Source: a virus
Lineage: Duplodnaviria; Caudoviricetes
Reading direction: 5' to 3' (one strand)
Length of the DNA: 62,436 bases
Virus record (IMG/VR): IMGVR_UViG_3300023440_000005
Coordinates: 1 to 62,436 of that record
Position numbers and translations under genes: made by a program. This document shows, piece after piece, positions 27,246-62,436 of the stretch; position 1 is the stretch's first letter, and each line of letters opens with the position of its first letter. The notes under the pieces were generated by a model that saw only the letters and a program-made list of their open reading frames with translations, ran no database searches and was not told the DNA's origin.

Positions 27246-27321
27246 TGGTAAGCCCTATCAGTTTCGAACTGATACTCTTCCTATTATGAGTAGGATGCAT
27301 TAACCGTTATGCTAAGGGCTT
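27246..27321 (-). tRNA. tRNA with CAT anticodon (likely Ile2/lysidine type; elongator Met not excluded)
   Basis: 76-nt cloverleaf: acceptor AAGCCCT/AGGGCTT, D stem GCAT/ATGC, anticodon arm TCCTA-CTCATAA-TAGGA, T arm ATCAG-TTCGAAA-CTGAT, encoded ACCA. Confidence 0.93.
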
Positions 27322-55448: not shown

Positions 55449-55604
55449 TTAACTCGTCATATTCGTAACCACCAATTCACTGGTGTCATCATATAAATTA
55501 AAAAACATTTTACCATTAATATTGATGTATAGATCCCTGTTATACATCTTGCGCTTAGCTTCTAGCTTAGCTTCTTCTGTTAATAGTAGTGTAAAGGATA
55601 TTGT
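55449..55604 (-). CDS. Virion RNAP beta' (gp180-like), exon 3 (TISFTLLLTEEAK...VVTNMTS*)
   Basis: 51-codon frame starting right after the intron's terminal G (55605); supplies the expected sequence after DFDGD; stop lies 3 nt before the next ATG. Confidence 0.8.
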   Translation of the reverse strand, partial: TISFTLLLTEEAKLEAKRKMYNRDLYININGKMFFNLYDDTSELVVTNMTS

Positions 55605-56032
55605 CAGTTTCTTCGGATAACCTCGTTACGATTATCCCGCAGCATTATCTGCAGCTTATACAGTTAGTATAATGTAGAGACCATATCACCACCCCCGTGA
55701 ATACGGTAGGGTGCTTCCCGTTTCCCTATCACTGATAGGTACACCGTGGTTAGCGGTTGGTCGTTGATCACATCCCACTGAATAACATAGAGGGACTTCG
55801 AGGCTGATTGCACATTGTTAATAACACTTAGACTTACTATCATCATATGTCATATACATGATTGTTTCTACTTTCGTAGCCGTAATAGTCTGCCATTTCT
55901 AGCTATCTATGGTGGCTCATGTATCTTTAGCACGTTCCAGCAGTTAGAGAAGTAACTACTCGACTATTACTAGCCGGTAGGACAGTGTAACGATTAGTAC
56001 GTTACCAAGTACAATAAATTGTACTAATCGTT
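55605..56032 (-). mobile_element. Group I intron (IA2-like, 428 nt, no endonuclease ORF)
   Basis: P AACTGCTGGAA (55935-55945), Q AATCAGC, R TCAACGACCA, S GATATGGTC; P7 GACCA/TGGTC; P3 CTTCTC/GGGAAG; P7.1/P7.2, P8 and P9 hairpins; GNRA loops; preceded by exon T and ends in G. Confidence 0.88.
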
Positions 56033-56038
56033 ATCACC
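56033..56038 (-). CDS. Putative 6-nt micro-exon GGTGAT (Gly-Asp) of the DFDGD motif
   Basis: Best-placed source of the missing GD, upstream of the ribozyme core; preceded by G and ends in T, as group I splice sites require. Confidence 0.62.
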
Positions 56039-56084
56039 CTAAATAGGTGAATCTGCTAGTAGGTATAACATAGCAGATACATTA
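56039..56084 (-). other. 46-nt mini-intron-like insert
   Basis: TAATGTATCTGCTATGTTATACCTACTAGCAGATTCACCTATTTAG; follows exon T, ends in G, contains an 8-bp hairpin ATCTGCTA/TAGCAGAT; no catalytic core. Confidence 0.55.
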
Positions 56085-57533
56085 ATCAAAGTCAGCACCC
56101 ATCCTTCCTAGGTACCTATGTGGAATATTAAGAGTATCAAAAAAACCAGTATCTTTTATAGGGAATTCCTTAGCTATAAATGGGGTAGGTTGTAGATCGC
56201 TATCTAACTCATAGAGCACTAGTGATTTATTGGTAGTTCTTAAATAAGCATAAATTAAATTAATACTACCATATCCAGTTATAGGGTATCGTGTTATAAG
56301 ACCGGGTATCTCATCAGACCCCTTATATACGGATAGATATAATAACTCTGATAACGTTATTGGATTGAGATTAACTCTAAGATCTTCAGGTATAGTATTT
56401 TTATCATATACTACCCTATACCCTTTGCCATCATTATATAAGAGCGCTAGATAATGATCTTCTATTTCAATAACATCATGACGGATATCGCTTATACCAA
56501 ATTTAGCTACAGTCTTTTCTATACCGTCGTAAGTCATCCATTCATCATAGGTTTCAGGGGCAATATCAACACTTACCCGTTCTAATGTTTTCTTATCTAT
56601 AAGAAATGCGGCACTATCAGAACCTACAAATATATTAGATAAATATGTATCACGTATATTTTTAACCGTTAGAGGTAAAGTAGATCTCAGATATTCATGC
56701 ATACCTACTATACACTGTTTAGAAGTTACATTGTTAGGATCTCCTAAGCGCTTCATACTCCGTATACTACTACTTAAAACATTTCTAGTGCTATTGAATA
56801 TATTCCTAGATATCCACTTACCTTGTATAAGCTTACCCTTTCCTTTTAAGAGATCCTCTATATATAAGTAGAGATCCAGTATAACTGTTTGTAGAGTATA
56901 TCTACTAGAGTCTAGAAGTTCTAAGTTTTGTTTAACCGTTATACCCTCTATGGAATTACTTATGCCTAAAATACGTTTATAGAAACCATTGACCTCATCT
57001 TCGGAAGGGGTTCCGGTGCTATCCACGAAGTAATCCCTTATACCAGCTGGCATGACTACTAGTTTATCAATAATGTGGTTATCTATATACTTTTCAATAA
57101 GAGCTATATTATACTCTCTTTGTGAACTATCAGTTTTAACTAATTTAAGTTCTTTTATATGCGATAAGAAAAAACTATAACCAGTATCGCCATCAACTGG
57201 TGATGCTGGCTCAAAGTCTAGAGTCTCCGTATTAAAGGTAGCGAATTTCTTACCACTCAATATATCCCCATAGAATGCTTTTAGTTTAACTATGAGTTTA
57301 AAAAATAAAGGATGCATAACTGTTATATTTAAATTAATATAACTAAATATACGATTACGACTCTCTTCTCCTACCTTACCAAAAATCTCAGTACTAAAGA
57401 GACCTTCTGGATGGAAATTCTTAGTAGATCCTATAAACGTGTCTAATACCTTAACTGGCGATATCCCTTTCACATCACGATCTTTAGGAATAAGAAGTTC
57501 AATATTAAATGGTACTTGGGTCATATTTAACAC
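56085..57533 (-). CDS. Virion RNAP beta' (phiKZ gp180-like), exon 1
   Basis: FHPEGLFSTEIFG, VMPAGIRD, KGK...IQGKW.SR, TRYPITG; stops abruptly at MGADFD within the catalytic motif. Confidence 0.92.
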
Positions 57534-57652: not shown

Positions 57653-60600
57653 ATGGCTAGTGAATTTGACCTAGATGATTTCAGTATGGATGATATGGAC
57701 AGTAGTTTTGGAGGGGAAAGTTTAGATATAAATCCAGAGATCGGAACTAATGATAGAAGACCTATATCACAAGCAGTAAAAGGTAGCATATCATCAGCTA
57801 AGAGCATACTAACCGATTCCAATACTATAAAGAATTTTATATTAAAAGCTTTACCTAAGGAATACGGAGAAGTACACTCAGATCTTGATAGTGGAGTAAG
57901 TGATTTAGCTGAACTTTATGATGAAAGTATCAAATCTATTAGACCCAAGATTAAGGGTATATCTACTAAGATTAATAGACTGATACCGGAACGTCATAAG
58001 AAGTTGAAGGGTATGTTAAAGGAAGTAGAGGAAGCTACTTCCGAATATCAGGGTAGAAACACTACTTCGGAAAGGGATATTCAGGAGAGGTCCATCAAAA
58101 CCGCTACCGAAAACATATTTAATACTCAAAAGGTAGCTGATAAGGAGAAGCTGTTAGATCAGGAAGTTGAAAGTAAGAAATTTAAAGCTACTACTGATAT
58201 ATCAACATCTATACGAGATGGTATACTTAAACTATCTACATATACCACCACTGTAACTCAGGCCTATCAGAAGAAATCGTTAGAGTTACAATACCGATCA
58301 TATTTCGTACAAAATAAATTACTAGAGATCTCTAATAAGTATTTTGAAGTATTTAACGTTCAAAATAAAGCTATAGTTGGAAATACGGCATTACCAGAAT
58401 ATGTTAAGATAACCAATAGTGAGAAGTTCAAAGAAGCTTCTAAAAATAGAGTCATTGGCAGTATTCAAGATAAGCTATTTTCAGATAAAGGTCTTATAAG
58501 TACTGTAACATCTAACATAAAAACACAACTTAAGTCAGTAATGGATGGAGTAGGTGCTGCTTTAGACGGTGTTGATATGGGTGCCGATATGGCAGATACT
58601 ATCGGTAGTATGGAGGACCCCGATGAGATGATGGGGGGTTCATCTAAGTCAGGTGCTTATAAGTTAGGGAGAATGGCTACTGCACACGGTGTAGGTTATT
58701 TTAATAATAAGCTTAGTAGTAGACTTAGATCTAGAGGTAACAGAAATAATAAACTAGTTAGCACTGGTAGAAATCTTAAAGATATCATTGCCGATCCCAC
58801 TTTACTAAGAGAATATATTAAAGATACTGGTGATTCAGATAATGAATTAGTTAACAATGCTAAGAGTATGTTATCTGATATACTAAATCCCAAAGGTGGG
58901 AATTTTTCAGGCAGTATAACCTCAGTATCGGATAAACTATTTGAGCCTGGTATTTACACTAATAGAACCAATAAGGCTATAGTAGAGGTTATACCGGGAT
59001 ATCTTAGTCGTATACTAAGAGAAGTCACCATATTAAGAACTGGAGATACTAGTACTGAATTAACTACCTTTGATTATAAGGGAAGTAATTTTCTTTCTAG
59101 ATCTAAATTTACAAAGGTTTTACAAAATAGACTAGTCGGAGATCTATCTGGCGATAACGTAGCCGAAAAGACTGATAAGATACTAAGTGGTATATTGGGT
59201 GACGTTACTCTTAGCAGTTCAGATAACGTAGATGCTTCAAAGCTATTACAGAATTCCATATTACAAGGAAATGTAACTAATACGAAATCATTAGCTAGAG
59301 TGCTTAAATCTGATAAGAGTGATATGGGGAAACTTCTATATAAAAGACTTATCACCAATGTGAATTCCGATACTTCTGGTAAGAAAATCTCAAAGTTCAA
59401 CAGTGAAGCGTTGAATCTACGAACAAGTATGAGTGGCTTAACCCCGACTATATCAGAGATTATGGATAATGGTCAAGGGGACATTCTTAGGGAGATGGGG
59501 GTGGTGACGGAAAATGATCAAGGTAAATATAGTTTAAATAAAGATAAGTATCTGGAACTTGCTAATGGTAAAACTACCCCCACTACTCATACCTCTGGTA
59601 CATCACGATTTAACCCATTAAGGAGATCGACTATACCAGATGTATCCAATCCTAACAATATAGATTCTCAGACCACTCATAGTCCTAGTAGTAGTTCTAA
59701 TGGCATCGGTCTAGAACCTGCATTCTTAGACCCAATCGTAAGTAATACTAGAGGTATACCAGTAATAGAATCCAATACTACTGATATATTGAAACTATTA
59801 AAAGAGGGTATACGATTTAATGCTACTGATGGTGATACGGGTACATCCCAAAATACTGAGGGTAGAAGTTCATTTTTTAGTTCAGTATTAGGAGCTGGTG
59901 GTAGTTTATTATCCAAACTATCAAGTGGGTTAAACTCAGCTAAAGATAATGTTGTAAAACCATTAGCTGGAGGTCTTGGGTCCTTACTTACATCAGATAC
60001 TACTAAAGAAGCCCTCAAATCGCTATTCTCGAAATCGATAAACCTTAGTAGTAAGATGTTAGATACTACTTTAGGATATATGGATACAGTTATGAGTAAG
60101 GGTAAGGGATTGTCCCAATATCTTTATAAGCAAGTCAAAGCTGGGGTTAATAAACTACTAGAGTATACTGGTGATATATACGTTAAAGGTAAGAACTCGC
60201 CAGTTATTAATGCTAGACTTCTCAAAGCTGGATTATATTTAGATGAGAAGAGTGGTGAGGTTATTAAATCATTCAAGGATATAAAGGGACCTATAGTAGA
60301 CTCTGCTGGTAGGGTTATTTTAACATTGGAGGATATAGCTTCAGGACTGTTAGATTATAAAGGTAAGGAAATTAAAGTACCTTTAGAGAAGATAGTAGCT
60401 TATACTAAAGGTAAAATTAAAGCTGGATTCAATAGACTTTCTAATACAGCTAACGTTATAAAAGGTATAGGGGGTAGTTTATTTAAGAAAGGGGATACTG
60501 CTGAAATAAGTGGCGGTAAAAGCTATAATGTATTAGTAGAAATACGGAACCTTATACAACAGTATATGGGGATATCTAGCACCTCTGGACTAACTAATAA

Positions 60601-62436
60601 GCTATCAGAATTTAAGGGCAAAGGTACATCTAGCACATCTGGTTTACTTAATAAGTTTATCAATATGGGTAAACGTAAATTTAATGATAGTGACGGAGAT
60701 GGCATACGTGATAATTCTGCTAGTTCTAGGTTTAAAACTGAGAGTCTTAGAGAACTAGCTAATAAAGGTAAGGATAAGGCTGCCGATCTAACTGAAAAAT
60801 ATCGTAACGCAAACGTCATTGATACAATGATGGAAAAGTTAGGAGGGTTATTTGGTAGCGATGGTTCAGATATAGATCTATCAGGCGGTAATCGAAGTAG
60901 AAGTCGTAGAAGAGGTCGTAGTCGGTTTAATTTACGGAATCTCGGTAGAAATATAAGGAATGTTCCAGGTAATATATTAAGAAGTGGGAGCTCTCTTTTA
61001 AGTGGTACTGCCACTATAGGTAGGACCGCAATGATGCTAGGGGGGTCTATTTTAGGAGGTGCTAGCACGTTCCTTTCAGGTATTGCTACTGCAGCAGGTA
61101 CTGTTTTTTCTGCACCAGTTTTATTAGGGGCTGCAGTTACAGCGGGTTTAGCCTATGGTGGTTATAAACTATATCAATATTACAGTAAGCGGGCTTTAGA
61201 TGATTATAGAAAGATTAGATTATACCAATATGGTATTATAGAGAAGGGGGATAATTCTACTAAACTACTTTTATTAGAAGATTATTTAAAAGATAAGGTT
61301 GGTTATGATAGAGGTAAAGCCTATTTACTTACTCGTAAGTTAGATATTAAAGAAATAATGAAGATATTCGGTATAGAAGATAATGATACCGAACATGCTG
61401 AGGGGTTAATAGAGTGGTTTGGCCAGAGATTTAAGCCTTTCTACTTGACTCATATGACAGCATTATTTAAAATCAATAATAAGGTCAAACTTGCGGATGT
61501 AGATAAGCTACCAGACGATCAGCGACTAAATTATCTAAGTGATATTTCATTTGATAATGGACCATATGGTATTTCTATATCGCCTTTCAAATCAATAACT
61601 AGTTTACCAAATACTAAAGATCTAACTATCTCACTCATACAGAAATTAATAACTGGCAAAAGTGTAGTTGTAGAGGCTAAAAAGGCTGGTGTTGTACATA
61701 ATGACTTAAAGAAAGATATAGCTAAACTAAAATCTGGGAATACTAAGATTAAAGATGTTACTGGGGATGTTACTATTAAAAATAAGGATGGTAAATCTCT
61801 AGTAAAAGTAAAGGTCTATAAACCCACTAAAGTTAATATCTCTAGAGGTAATCTTAATGATTTAAAATCGGGAGTTACTTCTACTATGGGGTTACCTCCT
61901 AATGTAGATGCAGCTGGTTATATATTACCTATTGATGACGAGTATGGTTATAGCATAACCCCAGATGGTAAACCTAAAAAGGTTACCACTTTTATAGCCC
62001 AGAATATAAATAAACTAAACCATTCTGCAATCAATCATTTACGTGATAAACGATATATGCGTAAGTATGCATTCGTTGAAGGTAAGTTTATTAAGCGTAA
62101 CGAGTTAACTTCTGAACAACTTAATGGTCATGTTGATAGCAAGTCTACTACCAGTGGTGATAGACTAGTTAAAGATAAAGACGGTAACCCACTGTATACT
62201 GTTAAGGGTCTTGGTAAACCTAAACCGGCTATAAATAGTAAGTCTACTACCAGTGGTGATAGACTAGTTAAAGATAAAGACGGTAACCCACTGTATACTG
62301 TTAAGGGTCTTGGTAAACCCAAACCTAAACCTAAACCGGCTATAAATAGTAAGTCTACTACCAGTGGTGATAGACTAGTTAAAGATAAAGACGGTAACCC
62401 ACTGTATACTGTTAAGGGTCTTGGTAAACCCAAACC
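57653..62436 (+). CDS. Giant tail protein, phiKZ gp181-like (tape-measure/lysin type); partial, runs off the window
   Basis: Not in the ORF track; AGGAG RBS then MASEFDLDDF; frame spot-checked open at 58.0, 61.0 and 62.1 kb; YQKKSLELQYR, TALPEYVKI, EVIPGYLSRILRE, Gly/Ala-rich hydrophobic stretch near 61.0-61.2 kb; divergent from gp180-like gene. Confidence 0.8.
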   Translation, partial: MASEFDLDDFSMDDMDSSFGGESLDINPEIGTNDRRPISQAVKGSISSAKSILTDSNTIKNFILKALPKEYGEVHSDLDSGVSDLAELYDESIKSIRPKIKGISTKINRLIPERHKKLKGMLKEVEEATSEYQGRNTTSERDIQERSIKTATENIFNTQKVADKEKLLDQEVESKKFKATTDISTSIRDGILKLSTYTTTVTQAYQKKSLELQYRSYFVQNKLLEISNKYFEVFNVQNKAIVGNTALPEYVKITNSEKFKEASKNRVIGSIQDKLFSDKGLISTVTSNIKTQLKSVMDGVGAALDGVDMGADMADTIGSMEDPDEMMGGSSKSGAYKLGRMATAHGVGYFNNKLSSRLRSRGNRNNKLVSTGRNLKDIIADPTLLREYIKDTGDSDNELVNNAKSMLSDILNPKGGNFSGSITSVSDKLFEPGIYTNRTNKAIVEVIPGYLSRILREVTILRTGDTSTELTTFDYKGSNFLSRSKFTKVLQNRLVGDLSGDNVAEKTDKILSGILGDVTLSSSDNVDASKLLQNSILQGNVTNTKSLARVLKSDKSDMGKLLYKRLITNVNSDTSGKKISKFNSEALNLRTSMSGLTPTISEIMDNGQGDILREMGVVTENDQGKYSLNKDKYLELANGKTTPTTHTSGTSRFNPLRRSTIPDVSNPNNIDSQTTHSPSSSSNGIGLEPAFLDPIVSNTRGIPVIESNTTDILKLLKEGIRFNATDGDTGTSQNTEGRSSFFSSVLGAGGSLLSKLSSGLNSAKDNVVKPLAGGLGSLLTSDTTKEALKSLFSKSINLSSKMLDTTLGYMDTVMSKGKGLSQYLYKQVKAGVNKLLEYTGDIYVKGKNSPVINARLLKAGLYLDEKSGEVIKSFKDIKGPIVDSAGRVILTLEDIASGLLDYKGKEIKVPLEKIVAYTKGKIKAGFNRLSNTANVIKGIGGSLFKKGDTAEISGGKSYNVLVEIRNLIQQYMGISSTSGLTNKLSEFKGKGTSSTSGLLNKFINMGKRKFNDSDGDGIRDNSASSRFKTESLRELANKGKDKAADLTEKYRNANVIDTMMEKLGGLFGSDGSDIDLSGGNRSRSRRRGRSRFNLRNLGRNIRNVPGNILRSGSSLLSGTATIGRTAMMLGGSILGGASTFLSGIATAAGTVFSAPVLLGAAVTAGLAYGGYKLYQYYSKRALDDYRKIRLYQYGIIEKGDNSTKLLLLEDYLKDKVGYDRGKAYLLTRKLDIKEIMKIFGIEDNDTEHAEGLIEWFGQRFKPFYLTHMTALFKINNKVKLADVDKLPDDQRLNYLSDISFDNGPYGISISPFKSITSLPNTKDLTISLIQKLITGKSVVVEAKKAGVVHNDLKKDIAKLKSGNTKIKDVTGDVTIKNKDGKSLVKVKVYKPTKVNISRGNLNDLKSGVTSTMGLPPNVDAAGYILPIDDEYGYSITPDGKPKKVTTFIAQNINKLNHSAINHLRDKRYMRKYAFVEGKFIKRNELTSEQLNGHVDSKSTTSGDRLVKDKDGNPLYTVKGLGKPKPAINSKSTTSGDRLVKDKDGNPLYTVKGLGKPKPKPKPAINSKSTTSGDRLVKDKDGNPLYTVKGLGKPK
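62141..62436 (+). repeat. Near-identical coding tandem repeat, at least 3 copies, periods 99 and 111 nt (KSTTSGDRLVKDKDGNPLYTVKGLGKPKP..)
   Basis: Copies start at 62141, 62240 and 62351; truncated by the window end. Confidence 0.95.

Follow-up and report, generated by a model that had tools for sequence, protein, structure and literature searches.

A 46-nucleotide coreless piece, a six-nucleotide micro-exon and a group I intron in the catalytic codons of a phage virion RNA polymerase gene: possible double splicing by one ribozyme core

A polymerase gene divided within its catalytic motif

The 62,436-base IMG/VR virus record IMGVR_UViG_3300023440_000005 – analyzed here over its full length and referred to as the window, with an estimated completeness of 23% – contains an RNA polymerase gene whose coding sequence appears to be interrupted twice, by a 46-nt piece without a ribozyme core and by a 428-nt group I intron, with only six nucleotides of exon between them. 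We describe this locus and consider whether the single intron core could remove both interruptions.

The first part of the gene is a 483-codon open reading frame (ORF) on the minus strand (57533-56085), which matches phrog_2986, 'RNA polymerase beta subunit', with an E value of 9.4e-159 and has 680 homologues; residues 5-483 align to positions 4-486 of the 539 in that profile. This is exon 1 (56085..57533, minus strand) of a gene for the N-terminal subunit of a virion RNA polymerase beta'. It ends in GRMGADFD with a TAA stop directly after, and its terminal letters at 56085 are GCUGACUUUGAU (UUUGAU in the RNA). The top cultured relative of the protein is that of Bacillus phage AgentSmith (41% identity), the remaining protein matches are to phiKZ-like jumbo phages, and several of the matched records label the protein as a virion-associated beta' subunit; a blastn search of phage records gave no match. 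The 3′ part, exon 3 (TISFTLLLTEEAKLE..., 51 codons plus stop; 55449..55604, minus strand), begins ACAAUA at 55604, opens TISF in translation, corresponds to phrog_2986 positions 489-539, and is 68% identical to the homologue P0003. At this point the AgentSmith protein reads GRLGADFDGDTISVTP, which has the D-F-D-G-D motif; in multisubunit RNA polymerases this motif carries the three Mg-binding Asp residues, and its counterpart in E. coli beta' is NADFDGD. By these matches the gene encodes the catalytic half of a jumbo phage virion RNA polymerase beta' subunit, interrupted twice within its D-F-D-G-D codons. A search for a terminator or promoter that might explain the locus turned up nothing relevant.

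Exactly two profile positions are left unfilled between exons 1 and 3, and the six nucleotides GGUGAU at 56033..56038 (minus strand) would supply them as Gly-Asp, including the third catalytic Asp. The closest uninterrupted relative (L062, 66% identical) reads AGG ATG GGT GGG GAT TTT GAT GGT GAT ACT GTA at the motif, and the three coding pieces of the window are collinear with it. D-x-D-G-D is present in all 65 of the homologues that extend beyond the motif, among 120 listed, and micro-exons measuring 6-8 nt occur at this motif in three relatives (L005, L006 and L030). Given the flanking bases, the only deletion that restores an L062-like reading is 56084-56039, and the arrangement exon 1 / 46 nt / GGUGAU / intron / exon 3 is therefore well supported as a reading of the sequence. 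The first-pass annotation of this DNA had proposed the same anatomy, which is borne out by the profile gap, the collinearity with L062 and the micro-exons of the relatives; the strings it quoted were all found letter for letter at their minus-strand coordinates.

The DNA itself was recovered more than once. A 16-kb contig of run X1 spans the stretch with 0 differences at a word depth of about 40, and 55929-56418 is spanned, also with 0 differences, by another contig, of 490 nt, from run X2 of a second sample; X1 and X2 are samples of one study and are thus not fully independent, and X1 is possibly the source sample. No contig without the 46-nt piece was found in runs X1 and X2, bearing in mind that contigs can hide rare variants. 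The presence of the same region in two samples at this depth argues for a propagating genotype. Run X2 also contains a contig (record 5) with a diverged relative of the 3′ part of the intron and exon 3 (window 55559-55767), in which the flanks are similar and a 127-nt middle is replaced, without change of length, by sequence that does not resemble it; the second sample therefore also contains a related phage strain.

The group I intron and the 46-nt piece

The intron occupies 55605..56032 on the minus strand and ends in G55605. It matches the full RF00028 model (1-253) at 56035-55655. The E value is 1.9e-7, but the 36.5 bits fall short of the gathering score of 50, at which nothing is listed; large insertions account for the deficit. 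Seventeen introns were delimited at the motif in fetched relatives, and a 15-sequence alignment that takes in the window was made. It has 48 consensus pairs, 33 with compensatory changes, and covers P2, P3, P4, P6, P8, P9 and P9.1; covariation extends through the core helices P3, P4, P6, P8 and P9, the P7 strands are conserved, and TCAACGAC and GATATGGTCT are conserved blocks. A nhmmer search with this alignment gives one match in the window (56034-55605, E 2.7e-60), and thus one family core in 62 kb. From the profile and alignment, the core of the 428-nt intron looks intact. Its 5′ boundary follows U56033, which pairs with G55983 of the guide 5′ of P2, and its final base is G55605; the start of exon 3 is fixed by the profile and by the P0003 alignment. 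Two hairpins of the P7.1/P7.2 type (55757-55743 and 55739-55725) are of a kind presumably associated with subgroup IA phage introns. The intron contains no endonuclease ORF, and no other ribozyme was found in the window, although the E-value scan of the whole window is of low sensitivity, having failed to pick up the known intron as well.

[quoted passage not shown] The internal guide CACUGUC (55981..55987) lies where GUC is found directly 5′ of P2 in 16/16 tabulated family introns; ACACUGUC at 55988-55981 abuts P2 (55980-55956), a hairpin with a GUAA loop that shows compensatory changes relative to L007. On the other side of the guide is a P1 extension hairpin (55989..56032), whose 12-bp stem is perfect, AACGAUUAGUAC (56032-56021) pairing with GUACUAAUCGUU (56000-55989), and whose loop contains UAUUGU. 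The 156-nt region as a whole folds at -50.7 kcal/mol (z -4.41), with 0/200 shuffles as good. When applied to the family alignment (A4), RNAalifold predicts that the guide GUC (columns 115-117) pairs with columns 634-636, a conserved GAC within the 3′ tail GGACAAnAG| of most family introns. This predicted pairing could compete with P1. The window intron lacks that tail and has GAAGAAACUG in its place.

The 46-nt piece (56039..56084, minus strand) is of a different kind. It is preceded by U56085 and ends in G56039, a combination expected by chance about once in 16 and weak evidence alone, and it sits exactly at the 'after second Asp' intron site of the relatives. It folds at -10.9 kcal/mol (z -3.44; 0/200 shuffles as good) into one hairpin plus flanks, the hairpin (56051..56078) being an 8-bp stem of AUCUGCUA (56078-56071) and UAGCAGAU (56058-56051) with a 12-nt loop. 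With 46 nt and a single hairpin it has no catalytic core of its own, and no Rfam match lies within it. Its tail CACCUAUUU (56041..56049) is predicted in the minimum free energy (MFE) fold to pair with GGAUGGGUG of exon 1 (56104-56096); the duplex, at -10.5 kcal/mol, is matched by 101/2000 tail shuffles and by 1/140 other exon-1 windows, and could tether the freed 5′ exon. The best complementarity for a kissing interaction between piece and core has p 0.27.

Two possible origins were examined and set aside. Comparison with the 17 family introns gave no significant similarity (shuffle p 0.05-0.99), for want of which the piece was rejected as a relic of a family intron, and the idea of a repeated mobile element was dropped when no second copy appeared in the window or in 70 loci. 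An exact search for the 46-mer in IMG/VR gave no match either.

Elsewhere in the window, an ORF of more than 1594 aa (57653-62434, plus strand) runs off the window end and closes with at least three near-identical repeats of ~30 aa (…STTSGDRLVKDKDGNPLYTVKGLGKPKP…). A tRNA-Met gene with anticodon CAT lies at 27246-27321 on the minus strand, and accounts for a sub-threshold Rfam match to 'Plastid-ycf2' at the same place on the plus strand.

Introns and micro-exons at the same motif in relatives

Interruption of this motif is common. Among the 120 listed homologues, 55 stop inside it: 25 at the first Asp, 24 at the second, three after D-x-D-G and three at the third Asp. The 24 stops after the second Asp identify the site of the 46-nt piece as a genuine intron site, with the limit that one of them (P0115) is at the DNA level a first-Asp intron read through (L070). 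Homologues P0004, P0005 and P0034 have the same GADFD-stop ending as the window. At the DNA level, 23 of the 57 IMG/VR loci with a readable gene end are interrupted, and the downstream exon was found for 22. These counts mark out the D-x-D-G-D codons of this polymerase as an intense hot spot for introns.

The DNA-resolved insertions all follow U, with the sole exception of L007 (C); if the first Asp is encoded by GAC, the site of insertion is shifted one base on, to follow U, and in L047 the guide reads GGUC instead of UGUC. Introns after the second Asp carry GUCG, pairing with CGAU. Full introns after the second Asp are present in L044, L063, L005 and L006, the last two having two full introns around TTCGAT, each with its own profile match (E 1e-72 to 1e-83), and L030 has two cores around an 8-nt micro-exon, ATGACGGT. 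These tandem complete introns (L005:4947-5700, L006:4950-5845 and L030:4927-5745) give two profile matches per locus, versus the one nhmmer match in the window, where the micro-exon is flanked by a complete core on one side only.

Besides that of the window, one intron was found after the third Asp, at L007:4944-5030. Its 5′ exon ends GGTGAC, so that C rather than U precedes the predicted splice site. The intron opens, directly after that site, with 11 nt that repeat the exon junction as it reads without interruption (GACTTTGATGG), and farther in it repeats 8 nt of its 3′ exon (GTTTCAGT); a shift of the splice site may have left these behind as a duplicated exon end. An internal GAU|GGG would pair with the guide UUUGUC better than the annotated site does. 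A pattern search for the P2 region of the window intron returned the L007 contig only.

The family extends beyond this site. Matches of the same family occur 3-4 kb downstream of the beta' gene (L004:8371-8436, L011/L022:8190-8439, L026:7975-8149 and L067:8628-9011), showing that neighbouring genes of the relatives also carry these introns; the neighbour concerned is probably the beta subunit gene. In records H73, H80, H89, H87 and H88 – Xanthomonas phage RTH11, Pseudomonas phage U1B, Escherichia phage Goslar, and Aeromonas phages LAh10 and D3 – the protein match ends at query residue 481-488, within the same motif, and in L040 a 2-kb intron comes after the first Asp; cultured isolates of jumbo phages therefore carry such introns too.

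One core, two junctions, and the alternatives

The question raised by this arrangement is how the 46-nt piece is removed. Double splicing by the single neighbouring core appears to be the best available explanation, and we put its probability at about 0.45. Its strongest argument is necessity combined with position. Removal of exactly 46 nt is needed for an active enzyme because the profile gap is two residues, the motif is invariant in the 65 homologues and the coding pieces are collinear with L062, and no catalytic RNA is in sight other than the adjacent core, with a guide able to hold both flanks. Also consistent with this explanation are the single core in 62 kb, the U...G bounds of the piece, and a heptamer complementary to the ligated junction.

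What is shown here is the anatomy, the need for Gly-Asp, the single core in the window and the complementarities; each catalytic step, and the order of the steps, we infer. The guide CACUGUC would hold two sequences at once, its GUC pairing with the GAU that ends exon 1 (with a U-G wobble) and its CACU with the GGUG that opens the micro-exon. The 46-nt piece would loop out, and its last G would replace the terminal G of the intron in the G-binding site, upon which exon 1 would be ligated to the micro-exon. The guide would then re-register on the micro-exon GAU, and the intron would splice itself out onto exon 3. The reverse order would be equally possible, with the intron self-splicing first and then acting on the mRNA as a free ribozyme. 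The fuller proposal of a natural 'spliceozyme', in which one core serially removes the 46-nt mini-intron and then itself using CACU for the micro-exon and UAUUGU for exon 3 as guides, is somewhat more doubtful again than double splicing as such.

It had been proposed from the letters alone that one guide fits both splice sites, that CACU and GGUG form a P10 for the first junction, and that the loop UAUUGU is complementary to the start of exon 3. All three complementarities exist, and what they can carry is limited. Pairing of the guide is possible at both sites, but its GAU/GUC part is trivial because both sites are GAU Asp codons and every family member reads GAU/GAC; all three motif Asp codons can end GAU. 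Across the ligated exon 1/micro-exon junction CACUGUC forms seven pairs, two of them G-U; it is one of three heptamers in the intron that pair throughout, the other two mostly by G-U wobble. CACU and GGUG form four contiguous pairs. In favour of the proposal, two of the four second-Asp introns have the same ACU-GUC flank as the window guide and another has GCU-GUC; it is these four that show an adjacent P10, of 2-4 bp, first-Asp introns having 0 bp except for one with 2. The loop (56016-56011) is an exact 6-nt complement of the exon 3 start, and its specificity is mixed in shuffles: exact UAUUGU occurs in 699/20000, and an exon 3 complement of at least this length anchored at +1 in 67/2000, the other 15 introns reaching 0-4 nt. 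The MFE fold adds GGUG/CACU to the 12-bp stem, making a 17-bp hairpin in which a single A is bulged, and the registers for the first and second junctions are mutually exclusive and isoenergetic (-43.8 vs -43.6 kcal/mol). These extra pairings are post hoc, with chance expectations from a few percent to about 18%; they are suggestive and none is decisive.

Several observations weigh against double splicing by the one core. GAU/GUC is only 3 bp and is common to every family intron, and at least four pairs with GGUG can also be formed in 2/11 family introns with no use for them, where the flank is U-rich and the pairing is mostly through G-U. The energy of the loop/exon 3 duplex is matched by 396/2000 shuffles, and both of the required conformers lie ~7 kcal/mol above the MFE structure, which has no P1. 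Were the exon 1 site joined to the distal 3′ splice site, the micro-exon would be lost and the product, still in frame, would be without Gly-Asp. The core has the proposed second 3′ splice site on its upstream side, a topology that to our knowledge is undescribed for natural group I introns. No other coreless piece was found among the 23 interrupted IMG/VR loci or the other fetched loci, nor in a metagenome scan (5 loci) and a genome scan (3 loci), and an IMG/VR scan with the single protein for relatives of the same layout returned nothing. No RNA runs containing the stretch are listed.

The alternatives fall into those in which the piece stays in the RNA, those in which something else takes it out, and those in which it is not really there. 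If it were never removed, the locus would be a defective allele, or would yield the truncated 483-aa protein and/or an exon-skipped product without Gly-Asp, and another gene copy or a helper phage would be needed. The piece has neither a core nor detectable homology to any intron, the fetched relatives provide no further example, just ~23% of the genome is in hand, and contigs drop rare variants, all of which speak for non-removal. Set against them, neither exon 1 nor exon 3 is damaged and both are well conserved, the boundaries of the insert, preceded by U and closing with G, coincide exactly with an intron site, the identical sequence occurs in two samples at a word depth of ~40, and the catalytic triad is invariant in 65/65 homologues, so we regard this explanation as unlikely. 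Ribosomes could instead hop over the piece in the manner of T4 gene 60, given that the take-off GAU is followed directly by a UAA stop, with the 8-bp hairpin beginning 6 nt later, and that the gap is ~50 nt. Here, however, the sole in-frame landing GAU lies in GGUGAU and would give GADFD-TISF, the triplet before GGU is UAG, and the other GAU meets UAG after 4 codons. There is thus no matched take-off and landing pair that keeps the Gly-Asp invariant in the motif; translational bypass was rejected on these grounds and its probability is very small.

Removal by another agent – a related intron acting in trans from the unseen three quarters of the genome, for instance one at the same motif in the non-virion polymerase gene, or a protein endonuclease together with an RNA ligase – is about as improbable as non-removal. 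Second-Asp introns are common (24/120) and their guides match GAU|GGUG, family introns occur in neighbouring genes of the relatives, and the genome is incomplete. Yet no such element is present in the 62 kb, a search around the piece found no bulge-helix-bulge or small-ribozyme match, and a cis-linked core would be kinetically favoured. That the 46 nt are an assembly or sequencing artefact would fit with the metagenomic origin of the record and with both samples coming from one study, but the 16-kb and 490-nt contigs of X1 and X2 cover the region with 0 differences and the piece contains a non-random hairpin, making an artefact as hard to credit as ribosome hopping.

Group I introns are taught as strictly self-contained, with one core for one intron, and we know of no case of a group I core removing a coreless segment other than with engineered ribozymes, namely those of trans excision-splicing (TES) and spliceozymes. 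Group I ribozymes of Pneumocystis, Tetrahymena and Candida excise coreless U...G-bounded segments via P1 and P10 in the laboratory by TES (PMC2532722), and an engineered Tetrahymena 'spliceozyme' likewise removes a coreless segment (PMC4094466). As proposed for the window, a core excises a coreless segment that follows U and ends in G, and P1 with the 5′ exon and P10 with the 3′ exon align the flanks on one guide strand (PMC2532722, PMC4094466); the window guide also pairs with both flanks of a segment ending in G, a match of low statistical weight. Those systems are laboratory constructs acting in trans, whereas the window core would act in cis from a position downstream of the segment and would, in addition, have to remove itself, and in TES the first nucleophile is the ribozyme's own 3′-terminal G (PMC2532722).

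Natural parallels are closer in anatomy than in mechanism. In placozoan cox1 a 1-nt exon lies between tandem group I introns (PMC5436844), and there, as in L005, L006 and L030, a micro-exon of a few nucleotides separates two intervening sequences at a codon-critical site; the gene and motif of these three loci are identical to those of the window. In cox1 and the three loci each intron has a complete core, unlike the 46-nt piece. In phage Twort, exon skipping occurs among three similar introns of one gene (Landthaler and Shub 1999, cited in PMC3073962), with the 5′ site of one intron joined to the 3′ site of another, so that a core acts on its neighbour's site; as described there this is a side reaction that loses an exon, whereas the cross-use in the window would be obligatory and the micro-exon would have to be kept (PMC3073962). 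The virion RNA polymerase beta gene of PhiPA3 has a homing-endonuclease group I intron, likewise directly after conserved Asp codons in a chimallivirus virion polymerase subunit, and differs in the subunit and site and in being a single intron with an HNH gene and no micro-exon (PMC11620839).

If double splicing by the single core does not take place, what remains is an intron hot spot bearing a degenerate insert. If it does, the mini-intron could be the remnant of a tandem-intron pair after one core became redundant, and may persist because, at the least possible cost, it fills the 'after second Asp' homing site. Tandem introns could then decay to helper-dependent mini-introns, and inserts of 40-50 nt at intron hot spots in metagenomic genes would not automatically deserve the name of frameshifts or pseudogenes. 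Group I splicing would then have a new variant that occurs in nature, within a gene essential to the phage, and in which cores can serve neighbouring degenerate introns.

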